From the IMG/VR virus record IMGVR_UViG_3300005264_000079, positions 15,372 through 79,371 of that record: a stretch of DNA of 64,000 nt, one strand, 5' to 3'. The DNA is from a virus (Duplodnaviria; Caudoviricetes). Shown one piece after another: positions 33,190 through 38,697 of the stretch. The notes below the pieces were generated by a model. That model was given only the letters and a program-made list of their open reading frames with translations, was not told the DNA's origin and searched no databases. Position 1 is the first letter of the stretch; every line of letters begins with the position of its first letter. Position numbers and translations under genes: made by a program.

Positions 33190-33366
33190 GGTTCAAATGT
33201 ACGTGGCTGTGGCGTCAAACTATTTCCGGTTCAAATGTATGCAAATAAATGTCAAACTATTTCGGCCAAATTTAAAATTTGGCCTCAGATCGCCCTATTG
33301 TCTCATTAACAGATTATCAGACAATAGTTATTATCAGATTGTCAGACAATAGCGAATGTCACATTC
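33190..33366. repeat. Cluster of direct and inverted repeats
   Basis: ggttcaaatgta x2 (33190, 33228), gtcaaactatttc x2 (33214, 33251), palindrome ggccaaatttaaaatttggcc (33264-33284), ctattgtct/agacaatag, attatcaga x2, gaatgtcacattc. Confidence 0.85.
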
Positions 33367-33527
33367 AAGAAATTATAGGCACTTATTGGATAAACCTGGT
33401 AGAATACTGCTACTAGATTTATTTATTGTTTAGTAATTTTGATATTCTGTTACATTTGTTAATGTCAGCTTGGATATATCTTTATGCCTAAACTTTAAAT
33501 AATCTTATCACGGTTTATATTTTAATC

Positions 33528-33575
33528 AAAAAAAATGCCTTTATAGTTAAATTCTATAAAGGCATTTTTTTTTTT
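33528..33575. terminator. Bidirectional intrinsic terminator
   Basis: A8-tgcctttatag-loop-ctataaaggca-T11 between convergent genes. Confidence 0.9.
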
Positions 33576-33584
33576 ATTTATAGC

Positions 33585-33836
33585 TTATATATAAGTCAGT
33601 GAAATATGTGGATTTTGCAATACAGTCATAATATTAATACTTGCTTGCTCTTTCCAAGATTCATCCGCCCAATCGAAAGACTGAATTTCTGATAATAATC
33701 GTTCAATTTGTTCCACTTTTGTTTTAATGTCCATTACCTCCCAGGTTAAATCCGTCGATGATTGCCATGGAAAGTAATACTCATCATTACAATCGCAATT
33801 TTTTTCATTATTCCAATATGTTAAATTCATACTCAT
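33585..33836 (-). CDS. Acidic hypothetical protein (early island)
   Basis: ORF track; GAGGT RBS. Confidence 0.65.
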   Translation of the reverse strand: MSMNLTYWNNEKNCDCNDEYYFPWQSSTDLTWEVMDIKTKVEQIERLLSEIQSFDWADESWKEQASINIMTVLQNPHISLTYI

Positions 33837-33857
33837 TTATTTACCTCTTTATCTCTT

Positions 33858-34001
33858 TTATTTCTTCAAATTTTTAATTTGAATTTGTAAGCTTTTATTT
33901 TTTTCAATTTCTTGGATATGTTTATCCATTAAATTATAATTGCCTATTATCATACCTAAAAAATAAGCAATGAAACACAGTAAAAAAATGAATGCTATCA
34001 A
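33858..34001 (-). CDS. 47-aa membrane peptide with coiled-coil-like tail (not in ORF track)
   Basis: AAGGAGGT then TTG; MIAFIFLLCFIAYFLGMIIGNYNL...NLKK. Confidence 0.6.
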   Translation of the reverse strand: MIAFIFLLCFIAYFLGMIIGNYNLMDKHIQEIEKNKSLQIQIKNLKK

Positions 34002-34193
34002 ATTTTACCTCCTTTTTTTATGCTCCGTTCAACGTCAAATTTTCTTATTATATTTTTTAAAATGTATTTTTTTGACTTTCCTGGTGTTTTAATTTTTTCA
34101 AATGAGGGCAAATTTTCAGCCTGAAAAATAGTGATTTTTGACATAATAAATTCCTTGTAAATTTTATTTAATCAAATTTAATTGATTAACAAA

Positions 34194-34223
34194 ATTCAAG
34201 AATTCAAAATTGAATTCTTGAAT
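34194..34223. terminator. 13-bp perfect hairpin downstream of 34243-34869
   Basis: attcaagaattca-aaat-tgaattcttgaat. Confidence 0.7.
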
Positions 34224-34242
34224 AAAATTAATAAATTAATTT

Positions 34243-34869
34243 TTAATTATTCCCAAGAATTTTCATTCCTTCTAAAATTTCCACATCATTACAAATTTCT
34301 GATATGACACTATCTAAAAAGATAGCTTGTCCTGAGCAAGTGCGACCCCAGTAATAGCCACTACCATAGTCCAGAACTGGTTCATTTTTTTCTTTCAATT
34401 TTTCAAAAAATTCCCGTGAAACATTCCACCACTCTAAAATTTCAGCGGGTTCATTTTCTTGTTCTTCAAATTCTTGTTTTTCCCTTTCCATTTCGATTGA
34501 CAAATTTTCGAGATTATCAATTCTATTAAAAATTATTTTATTACGGTAGTCGGTTAGCAAATTATTTTCATAAAATTCTTTATAGTCAAAAATTATTGCG
34601 TCAAGTTTAGAAATTTCATCCTCTAAAATTTCTAAGCTCTTTTTTCGGTCTGCCTCATTTCCGGTATAGTCAGAAATGAATTTACCGGAAAAATCAGGAT
34701 ACCGGAAAAAATTAGAGATATCGTCGTATTGTGGTAAATCGGAATCACCGACCTGGTAGGATAAAGATAGTAATTTTGCTATCTCAAAAGTAGCACAACA
34801 ATTAATCTCTCTTTGTATGAATTTTCTTTTGATTTCTTGATTTACAGTGGAATTGTGATTTTTTGCCAT
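34243..34869 (-). CDS. Acidic conserved phage early protein
   Basis: C-terminal 'EILEWWNVS...LKEKNEPVL...YWGRTCSGQAIFLD'; own promoter. Confidence 0.7.
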   Translation of the reverse strand: MAKNHNSTVNQEIKRKFIQREINCCATFEIAKLLSLSYQVGDSDLPQYDDISNFFRYPDFSGKFISDYTGNEADRKKSLEILEDEISKLDAIIFDYKEFYENNLLTDYRNKIIFNRIDNLENLSIEMEREKQEFEEQENEPAEILEWWNVSREFFEKLKEKNEPVLDYGSGYYWGRTCSGQAIFLDSVISEICNDVEILEGMKILGNN

Positions 34870-34901
34870 TTTTTTTGGCTCCTTCGACTTGATATACTTT
34901 G

Positions 34902-34930
34902 ATAGTATATTAGCAATATAATCGTGTCAA
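34902..34930 (-). promoter_or_regulatory. Leftward early promoter
   Basis: TTGACA-17-TACTAT. Confidence 0.75.
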
Positions 34931-34946
34931 GATAAAAAAAAAGAAA

Positions 34947-35036
34947 ATTATTATTATTATTATTATTATTATTATTATTATTATTATTATTATTATTATT
35001 ATTATTATTATTATTATTATTATTATTATTATTATT
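34947..35036. repeat. (ATT)30 microsatellite
   Basis: 90 uninterrupted bp of ATT. Confidence 0.97.
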
Positions 35037-36608: not shown

Positions 36609-36632
36609 CTATAATATAAATTCCGGTATAAT
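36605..36632 (+). promoter_or_regulatory. Early promoter
   Basis: TTGACT-16-TATAAT. Confidence 0.7.
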
Positions 36633-36662
36633 TATATTATCTTAATTGTAAAGGAATTTTAT

Positions 36663-36899
36663 ATGAATGTTTTAAACAGAATAGAACTTTTTAGTAATGA
36701 GATTGAAGAATTAGCAGGATACTTTCAGGATGTAACCATTCTAAAAATGATTGCTAATAATCTTTGTGATGACTACGCTATTTTGAACACTGCTAATGGT
36801 GTAATTTTGGAAAGAGACACAGGAGCGGAGAAAGCTTTTTTTAATATACTTGTTCCTTTTGACAAATTAATAAGTATACTAAACGAAATTAGTCTATAA
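36663..36899 (+). CDS. Acidic hypothetical protein
   Basis: ORF track; AAGGA RBS. Confidence 0.65.
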   Translation: MNVLNRIELFSNEIEELAGYFQDVTILKMIANNLCDDYAILNTANGVILERDTGAEKAFFNILVPFDKLISILNEISL

Positions 36900-36905
36900 G
36901 GATTA

Positions 36906-36937
36906 TTATTCCCTTGATAATAATATCAAGGGAATAA
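36906..36937. repeat. 14-bp perfect inverted repeat
   Basis: ttattcccttgata-ataa-tatcaagggaataa. Confidence 0.85.
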
Positions 36938-36952
36938 AAGGAAAGGAAAAAA

Positions 36953-37243
36953 ATGAAAAAAGAAAATTCAGCTTACGAAATTTATGTCACATATTGTTAT
37001 AGTAGTAATACTTTCAATATTCCTGAAAATGGAATTTTAAAAAATCCTGAAAATGACAATAAAATTTGTTTTGAAAATAAAGAAATTCCGTTAAAAATAA
37101 TCGATGAATTAAATTCTTATGTTTATTATTTAAATCATGGAGAACAAGGACGGCCTGAATATAAAGTCAGGAAAGTTAGAAAAAATTCTAACATGGATTT
37201 ATACGAGTTCTTTTCGTATGATGATTTTTTTTATTATTATTGA
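36953..37243 (+). CDS. Hypothetical protein
   Basis: ORF track. Confidence 0.6.
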   Translation: MKKENSAYEIYVTYCYSSNTFNIPENGILKNPENDNKICFENKEIPLKIIDELNSYVYYLNHGEQGRPEYKVRKVRKNSNMDLYEFFSYDDFFYYY

Positions 37244-37268
37244 CTTAATAATCAATATACTCTATAAT
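37240..37268 (+). promoter_or_regulatory. Early promoter
   Basis: TTGACT-17-TATAAT. Confidence 0.8.
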
Positions 37269-37298
37269 AATTATATAGTATATTGATAAGGGGAATTT

Positions 37299-37526
37299 AT
37301 GAAAATTAAATCAGATGAATCCAGGTTGAAAATAGCGGTTTTAATATTAAATCAAGAAAATACCAGCAGTGAACAGCGAATTCACGCTTATAGGATTATT
37401 GACAGTATTACCTGTACAAATAATAGAAATTACGAAAAAAATATAAATTTTTTGTATGGTATTGATAAGCAAATAGCACAGAATACAATTATTAATAGGT
37501 CTGTTGCTATTGATACAATTTTTTGA
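37299..37526 (+). CDS. Hypothetical protein
   Basis: ORF track; AAGGGG RBS. Confidence 0.6.
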   Translation: MKIKSDESRLKIAVLILNQENTSSEQRIHAYRIIDSITCTNNRNYEKNINFLYGIDKQIAQNTIINRSVAIDTIF

Positions 37527-37603
37527 TTATTGACAGAATAAAGGATATTGTTATTAATATCTTTTATTATCTTAATAATTTTTTTTAGTAGGAGAACTAT
37601 AAA

Positions 37604-37936
37604 ATGATATTTTATGATAAAGATACGGCAATAGAATTTAGAGCAAAAGCAATGGAGGAAATGAATTCTTTTATTTTTGATATAATGAAAAGTGTTAGAA
37701 AATATCCGAACGCCAGTGATGACAGTGTTAAAAGTCATATTGAGCAAAAAATTCAGCATGAATTACCAAAAAATTTGAGTATTTTATTACACCGTTCAGG
37801 ACTTGTATTCCCAGCTGATGGAAGCGGAATTTACCCCGTAAATTTATATTATGATGATATGGATAGGAATGATAATGTCATCATAAAATTTGATGGTTTA
37901 AACGGTGGTATTAAAAATGGAGAAATTCACACTTAA
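37604..37936 (+). CDS. Hypothetical protein
   Basis: ORF track; AGGAG RBS. Confidence 0.65.
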   Translation: MIFYDKDTAIEFRAKAMEEMNSFIFDIMKSVRKYPNASDDSVKSHIEQKIQHELPKNLSILLHRSGLVFPADGSGIYPVNLYYDDMDRNDNVIIKFDGLNGGIKNGEIHT

Positions 37937-38083
37937 TTTTTAAAAGGAGGAATATAAAAATGATTTGTATCAATATCAAAAATAAAGGAATAGTGGAAAC
38001 TGTCAACGAATTCAAAACACGAAACAATGCTAATTGTTTTAGATGAGGCAGTGTTTTAATCAAATAGATTTTAGAGGTTGGGA

Positions 38084-38697
38084 GGATAACACAATAATCT
38101 GTATTATCTCTTTTTTTTAAATTTATATTGCATTCTTTTAAAATAATGTTTATACTGTTTATAACGTTAAATAAAGGAAGTATAAAAATGTATGTAGTAA
38201 GAAACACTATTTGTTCCTGTGGAAATGATACATATAATAAAAGTAGTAATGAATGGACTTGCTGCAACTGCGGAAAGAAAACACCAAGAACTTTTCGTAA
38301 CAAGAAAGCAAGAGATATAGAAGCCTGTTCAGACTATGAAATATTTATAAGGTATTGTACTCCTTCACAATTAAAGCACGTAGAGGACATTAATAGCAGA
38401 AATTATCTAACCTTTGTGCAAGGAACTGTATTATGTGGATCTGCTTTTGTTATGTTTAAAGATGATTTAGGGTTTTTGCAGTCTTTTGAGATATCAATCA
38501 GAGGGAAAAAACGTAGTTTATGATTAATGTTATTTTAATGCTAAGTTTAAGATTAAACATAAGAAATAAGGAAGTAAATATGAAAATTTACAACTAGAAA
38601 TTAGTATCGCTCGAAAGGAATTGCAATTGTATAAGTAACAATAGTAATAACAAAATAATATGAGAATAAGGATAATACAATAATCTGTATTATCCTT
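38084..38697. repeat. Two copies of a 25-bp hairpin element (38084-38108, 38670-38694)
   Basis: ggataa(c/t)acaataatctgtattatc, 24/25 identical; the second copy is a perfect stem. Confidence 0.85.
38188..38523 (+). CDS. Zinc-ribbon hypothetical protein
   Basis: 'CSCG...WTCCNCG'; likely start ATG 38188 behind AAGGA. Confidence 0.6.
   Translation: MYVVRNTICSCGNDTYNKSSNEWTCCNCGKKTPRTFRNKKARDIEACSDYEIFIRYCTPSQLKHVEDINSRNYLTFVQGTVLCGSAFVMFKDDLGFLQSFEISIRGKKRSL

Follow-up and report, generated by a model that had tools for sequence, protein, structure and literature searches.

The subject of this study is a stretch of about 5 kb free of GATC sites, hereafter termed the island, which lies in a 64,000-nucleotide window of tailed phage (Caudoviricetes) DNA. 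The window comprises bases 15372–79371 of a 79,371-bp linear viral contig (IMG/VR record IMGVR_UViG_3300005264_000079) that is ~47% complete according to CheckV and has no end repeats; coordinates below are those of the window. Left of 32,460 the genes run leftward and serve replication and DNA modification (the replication arm). Right of 32,778 the genes run rightward, with a small helix-turn-helix (HTH) protein, the island, a NinI-like phosphatase, an ATP-dependent ligase and terS, followed by an intein-bearing terL, the portal gene, head and tail genes and the tape measure gene. The island, ~5 kb upstream of terS, consists of two diverging transcription units, leftward (33585–34869) and rightward (35098–38523), with terminator-like hairpins closing both sides. 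It is proposed here, with moderate confidence, that the island is a recently imported, early-type accessory cassette which brought its GATC-free state along. The features of the locus are listed below, where a promoter match means agreement at 11 or more of the 12 positions of TTGACA-16/18-TATAAT.

32676–33185, + strand: native flank, with an 11/12 promoter (32676–32704) and a winged-HTH-like gene (32778–33185).
33186–33584: left junction, with tandem units, a repeat, hairpins and the last GATC (33288).
33189–33267: two tandem units of ~39 nt sharing GGTTCAAATGTA...GTCAAACTATTTC, directly after the HTH gene.
33305–33352: a 25-nt sequence repeated twice.
33396–33416 and 33528–33572: hairpins, the second with a 19-bp stem and resembling a bidirectional terminator.
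33585–34869, − strand: leftward unit of four small genes (33585–33836, 33858–34001, 33998–34144 and 34243–34869), including that for a 208-amino-acid (aa) product.
34870–35097: 228-bp divergent control region, with a leftward promoter-like site (34930–34902, 10/12).
34947–35038: perfect (ATT)30.7 microsatellite between the back-to-back promoters, ending 1 bp before the rightward one.
35040–35067, + strand: rightward promoter, a perfect TTGACA-16-TATAAT.
35098–35781, + strand: gene for a 227-aa acidic protein (phrog_5162).
35789–37936, + strand: small rightward genes 35837–35959 (membrane-like), 35949–36608 (219 aa), 36663–36899, 36953–37243, 37299–37526 and 37604–37936.
35789, 36605 and 37240, + strand: 11/12 promoters of the rightward unit.
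38083–38702, + strand: right junction, with gene 38128–38523 holding a GCWGC site (38261) and the first GATC (38438).
38083–38116 and 38669–38702: a hairpin pair, two copies of a 34-nt sequence with 88% identity, bracketing gene 38128–38523.

The GATC sites at 33288 and 38438 bound a gap of 5,150 bp, which is the longest in the window, the second longest being 3,308 bp. An earlier reading made from the letters of the DNA (the sequence-only reading) had claimed about 5.1 kb without GATC, at least 11 sites in bases 1–3000 and about 6 in the capsid gene, and all three claims were borne out (11 in bases 1–3000 and 6 in the capsid gene, 53686–54609). Its composition-based estimate was about 10 sites, and Markov models of the island itself gave 11.8 (order 0), 14.6 (order 1) and 9.25 (order 2) expected sites. 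As it had further claimed, other palindromes remain in the island, all near their expected counts (CCGG 4, GGCC 1, GCGC 1, GTAC 4, AGCT 12, TCGA 9, CATG 7), and the loss is specific. When 1,500 genomes of 79 kb were simulated under a position-dependent (local) order-2 Markov model, the island held a mean of 9.7 GATC sites and was empty in none of them. Among the simulated genomes, 0.27% showed an equally extreme GATC gap at some position, and 1.0% showed one when all 16 palindromic 4-mers were considered. Shuffling of synonymous codons among the island genes, with protein sequence and codon usage kept, predicted 6.4–7.5 sites in these genes against 0–1 observed (P about 6e-4), and GATC was the sole depleted palindrome among the 16. 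The depletion thus survives both Markov and codon-level correction, the former having been proposed as a check by the same reading.

Codon shuffling found the replication arm to be mildly depleted in GATC (102 sites against 134 expected) and the structural arm not to be (47 against 49). The observed/expected ratio (O/E) by this method is 0.76–0.95 outside the island, and only over 6.5% of the genome is avoidance complete. These results show a real, GATC-specific and local depletion, at a family-wise level of roughly 1%. A wider GATC-poor domain of 13 kb (33.3–46.3 kb; 7 sites against 29 expected by the Markov model) was also considered and was rejected, as it was non-significant under codon shuffling and was not present in L015, a related phage contig.

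Chance combined with low GC content, by which an AT-rich 5 kb simply happens to miss one 4-mer, was weighed against these figures. When the gaps of all 136 4-mer classes were ranked by order-2 expectation, the GATC gap (9.2) came at the top behind those of the globally avoided CTAG and GCGC, with the runners-up close to it (8.3, 7.7 and 7.4). It should also be noted that the region was delimited by the gap itself and that very many windows were scanned. Nevertheless, the family-wise probability is low (0.003 for GATC; 0.01 when any palindrome is counted), the codon shuffle gives the low value stated above with GATC alone depleted, and the gap coincides with a compositional block that was defined independently. 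In addition, phage loci without any GATC make up at least 5% of those surveyed (see below), a frequency that makes inheritance far likelier than a coincidence of the order of 1e-4. A chance origin is thus regarded as improbable.

The compositional block was apparent from several measures. The GC content of the island is 26.1% against ~35% elsewhere, in agreement with the claim of a much more AT-rich stretch, and GC content at third codon positions is 0.22 in island genes and 0.29–0.30 in all other gene groups. CpG dinucleotides are close to expectation within the island, with 80 observed for 86 expected (O/E 0.93), and are suppressed over the remaining genome (O/E 0.36; P 2e-13); each sizeable island gene is near 1.0 and each flanking gene at 0.2–0.5. 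The CpG profile rises at ~33.2 kb and falls at ~38.4 kb, the same limits as those of the GATC-free run, with steps of 0.30 (gene 32778–33185), 0.83 (33186–33584), ~1.0 (island genes), 0.57 (38128–38523) and 0.37 (beyond 38524). The edges of the block are sharp and lie at gene or terminator junctions, with hairpins at both ends; the AT-rich zone itself reaches past the block to ~39.2 kb and there shows the native CpG suppression. Karlin delta* between the island and the rest is 142–147, whereas all other 5-kb windows give 20–80, and in no other part of the genome is the correlation of tetranucleotide profiles so low. L015, the only true relative found (by a terS search), has a CpG O/E of 0.37 and a delta* of 24 to the phage core, and therefore CpG suppression is native to the lineage. 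Every testable mark of an acquired block, namely composition, oligonucleotide signature and sharp boundaries, is present. The sequence-only reading had named a recent import from a genome avoiding GATC everywhere as the finding that would speak against it, and this is largely what was found, in that the block is compositionally foreign; the GATC avoidance of the donor is presumed.

The abrupt change of composition on both sides of the island could also be expected if a foreign 5-kb fragment had been joined in by the metagenome assembler. The assembler would, however, have had to misjoin the contig twice, the two flanks share one signature, the junctions fall at terminators or in intergenic DNA, and the promoters are oriented consistently with the flanking arms, which makes an assembly artifact extremely improbable. 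Elsewhere in the window, 2-kb windows between 17600 and 23600 have a CpG O/E of 0.55–0.75 (genome median 0.38), with the GC fraction falling to 0.305 at 20–22 kb, and may represent smaller foreign patches in the replication arm.

Loci of possible donor type were looked for among IMG/VR phages carrying homologs of two of the island proteins. Of the 33 loci with the 227-aa family, 12 (L017, L019–L022, L025, L027–L030, L046 and L050) are GATC-free over 4–20 kb, where 10–74 sites would be expected, and many loci with this family also lack CCGG, GGCC or CATG. For the 208-aa family, four of 80 loci were GATC-free over 4–20 kb. The two sets differ (Fisher P 5.5e-5), some near-duplicate loci being included. 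GATC-free phages are therefore sufficiently frequent to be plausible donors. If the prior is set at 5% or more for such a donor and at ~1e-4 for an island empty by chance, inheritance is much likelier than coincidence.

On the proposed import of a GATC-free cassette, the block of ~5.3 kb (about 33.19–38.5 kb) would be one discrete set of horizontally acquired accessory genes, inserted where the leftward replication arm and the rightward ligase, terminase and structural arm diverge. It would consist of two back-to-back units of small genes behind consensus sigma-70-type promoters, presumably read early by the host polymerase, and its composition would not yet have drifted to that of the resident genome. 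The missing GATC would have been inherited from a donor lineage under GATC-directed restriction, either of the DpnII/MboI/Sau3AI kind or by a methyl-dependent enzyme of the DpnI type. A local purge within the resident genome would be a less simple account.

A number of observations weigh against this proposal. Strong selection removing ~10 sites could outpace neutral loss of CpG, in which case the purge would have followed the import. The L015 contig ends at the phosphatase gene, short of the island, and a metagenome scan with a terS alignment found nothing, leaving no empty-site relative. No match, and hence no donor, emerged when the island DNA was compared with 50,697 phage records in both near and distant mode. 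The closest protein relatives of the island products are 35–45% identical to them, and the closest phage loci with the 208-aa family are not GATC-free. As to relatives of the phage in general, L015 shares 76% identity in TerS, 71% in TerL and 59% in the portal protein. Cultured phages are all distant (portal identity at most 28%, TerL ~37%), a search of IMG/VR for relatives of a flanking 375-aa gene found none, and a ligase search gave only distant, non-syntenic loci.

The region next to the block carries further traces of rearrangement, the most evident being the following.

39613–39830, + strand: decayed AntA/ANT copy, corresponding to the first 86 codons of gene 28024–28743, with a frameshift, an in-frame stop and its own 11/12 promoter at 39564.

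This decayed copy, together with the repeated hairpins and promoters near the block, suggests a zone of recombination and decay. The 34-nt hairpin pair may mark a site of recombination of the promoter/stem-loop type, and the repeats of the left junction (33189–33352) look like operator or iteron sites. A perfect 26-nt direct repeat was also observed at 40030–40055 and 41644–41669, the second copy being inside the NinI-like phosphatase gene, with no wider homology detected. A duplicated regulatory region flanking the island, suggested by repeat pairs ~6.6–6.9 kb apart, was rejected because the alignment consisted of a shared 30-nt promoter and low-complexity AT runs only. No tRNA genes were found in the window, and an Rfam search of 31.5–44 kb gave no match.

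Within the genome, 21 promoter matches were detected against 4.9 expected, all of them co-oriented with the local genes. The replication arm (47 kb) accounts for 12 of them, and seven lie in 32.4–39.7 kb, where 0.75 would be expected. The remaining two are beyond 44 kb in the terS–terL region, and there are none after 45,865. The claim that many of the small open reading frames (ORFs) have their own consensus promoter was therefore upheld. The cassette is probably read early by the host RNA polymerase, judging from these promoter sequences. The same reading had described the ORFs as often acidic, which holds for the three largest proteins (isoelectric points of 4.3–4.7; net charges of −18, −18 and −28) and only in part for the island as a whole, where five of 12 ORFs fall below an isoelectric point of 5, against 30% of ORFs elsewhere.

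None of the island proteins matched Pfam. Two matched PHROG families, both of unknown function, and no match to an anti-restriction or anti-defence family was found for any of them in Pfam, PHROG and atlas searches or in fold searches with the 227-aa model. The 208-aa protein, a member of phrog_26364 with a WGRxCSGQ motif, has homologs in no fewer than 99 phage loci of IMG/VR. The 227-aa protein is assigned to phrog_5162, a conserved family of phages and mobile elements with invariant CQGDG and GYxEIEY motifs. Its AlphaFold2 model (predicted local distance difference test score of 89) gave only background-level matches to the PDB with Foldseek and VIA-align, and its structural neighbors in BFVD are all uncharacterized phage proteins; the atlas searches gave no functional lead for the island proteins. 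Among cultured phages, members of the phrog_5162 family were seen in jumbo phages and Bacillus Herelleviridae. In the latter (Kioshi, as gene 9, Hobo and BM15) there are two copies per record, among the small genes of the genome ends (terminal repeat). Several copies per genome of the CQGDG family were also seen in metagenome-assembled genomes of Pyrinomonadaceae and Planctomycetaceae. The 219-aa protein, with a net charge of −28, has no homolog among 5.8 billion proteins. In comparison with DNA mimics of the Ocr/ArdA type, acidic proteins are present in the island, with no sequence match to these mimics and no fold match for the 227-aa model.

The genome as a whole shows marked avoidance of other restriction motifs, with near-absence of GGWCC (1 against ~61 expected), GCWGC (2 against ~57), GCGC (1 against 14–27), CGCG (0) and CTAG (29 against ~194), and with CCWGG reduced to 0.38. 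The whole contig also lacks GTTAAC, GAGCTC, GGATCC and CTGCAG, and this genome-wide fingerprint of restriction avoidance could help in guessing the host. The island contains the sole GCGC of the genome (at 35100), and one of its two GCWGC sites (at 38261). It also has six CCWGG, where the rate outside it would predict 0.67 (P 7e-5), and three CTAG, where 0.8 would be predicted. The fingerprint of the island is thus opposite to that of the genome, being strict for GATC and lax for the motifs avoided by the core. As it keeps GCGC, GCWGC and CCWGG, which the rest avoids, the island shows no special hardening against the restriction enzymes by which this phage was shaped.

This bears on the interpretation put forward in the sequence-only reading, in which the island is the first-injected end of the virion DNA and was purged of GATC by positional selection, as its exposure would precede the action of early anti-restriction functions. 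That leading DNA avoids restriction sites is established for the first-step-transfer DNA of T5. It is likewise established in Autographiviridae, in which the position of the motif in the first-injected region decides sensitivity to Type I restriction (PMC12455610). The GATC-specific and local depletion, with an undepleted structural arm, would fit such an end, as would the promoter density, which suggests early expression. Strong host-polymerase promoters of the kind looked for in a leading region are present at the level of sequence, including the one perfect consensus, and the 12 in the replication arm share this property. In addition, if packaging of the lambda type proceeds rightward from near terS, the island, lying upstream of it, would be packaged last and ejected first, and the 227-aa family stands in the terminal-repeat region of the Bacillus Herelleviridae mentioned above.

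Against this, the sequence places no genome terminus at the island, and the freedom from host restriction sites looked for in a leading region was found for GATC alone. With respect to the main restriction pressures on this phage, the island has been purged to a lesser degree than the core, whereas a hardened entry end would be expected to be purged at least as far. Its foreign composition is a simpler origin of the missing sites. Moreover, the precedents are podoviruses and T5, with slow, staged DNA entry, and the present genome is of a siphovirus-like terS/terL type. The phage also has genes for at least one DNA methyltransferase and for a protein of the Mom family, and these would protect virion DNA whatever its position. 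An entry end made GATC-free by positional selection, which could be combined with import, is accordingly considered unlikely. The combined form, in which the cassette forms the leading end of a terS/terL siphovirus-like phage and was kept, or chosen on arrival, for being GATC-free through early exposure, is rated slightly lower still. If the island were indeed a leading end, the rule that motif position matters would extend from T7- and T5-like phages to another virion type, and the orphan acidic island proteins would become candidate inhibitors of host defence.

The products of the replication arm include a DNA polymerase, Dda-like and DnaB-like helicases, a primase, an N6/N4 methyltransferase, a Mom-family protein, two antirepressor-type proteins, a tyrosine recombinase and a ParB-N protein. 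The methyltransferase and the Mom-family protein raise another possibility, namely that GATC is avoided for regulation or repair, either of the Dam/SeqA/MutH type or through the phage's own methyltransferase/Mom module, and not on account of restriction; expression of mom in phage Mu is Dam-dependent. There is nothing to connect the methyltransferase/Mom module to the island, however, and GA/TC steps are generally undepleted within it (rho for GA of 1.13). The replication arm also has strong sigma-70-type promoters, is probably read by the host polymerase and keeps a GATC O/E of ~0.8. A regulatory cause is therefore thought very improbable.

Import of a GATC-free cassette remains the preferred explanation, and as such the island would illustrate clearly how ancestry, and not position, can leave a local desert of restriction sites, the 5 kb in question also being free of the CpG suppression and of the GCGC, GCWGC and CCWGG avoidance seen in the rest of the genome. 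Where motif deserts are read as entry ends, coincidence with a compositional import should be checked first. The cassette offers about eleven uncharacterized early-type genes, which are reasonable, although unprioritized, candidates for screens of host-takeover and counter-defence functions.

Among known systems, the leading regions of T5 (first-step-transfer), T7 and Murciavirus resemble the island in being variable and promoter-dense, with small early-type genes and one restriction motif missing. The island differs from them in having no homologs of Ocr, A1/A2, Dmp or other known leading-end genes, in containing sites which are avoided elsewhere in its genome, and in the siphovirus-like terS/terL type of that genome. 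The host-takeover module of SPO1 type, in the terminal redundancy of Herelleviridae, likewise has many small genes and strong consensus early promoters, and the 227-aa family is common to both. The likeness is limited to this one shared gene family, at 23–27% identity, and the structural genes are unrelated. According to Rusinov et al. (2018; PMC6286503), no other motif is under-represented as consistently as GATC in phages whose hosts possess the corresponding enzymes. Fully GATC-free phage contigs, as found in this analysis, agree with such genome-wide avoidance, whereas in the present genome complete avoidance is confined to the island and the rest is only mildly depleted.

The hyperplastic or mosaic accessory regions of phages (morons; promoter/stem-loop cassettes of the T4 type) are similar to the island in their small and mostly orphan genes with their own promoters, their hairpin bounds, their atypical composition, their site between conserved modules, and the decayed fragments and repeated promoters and hairpins nearby. 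The island departs from them in an avoidance spectrum opposite to that of the resident genome and in that no donor or empty-site relative was found. Taken together, the case is best read as fairly ordinary phage mosaicism.

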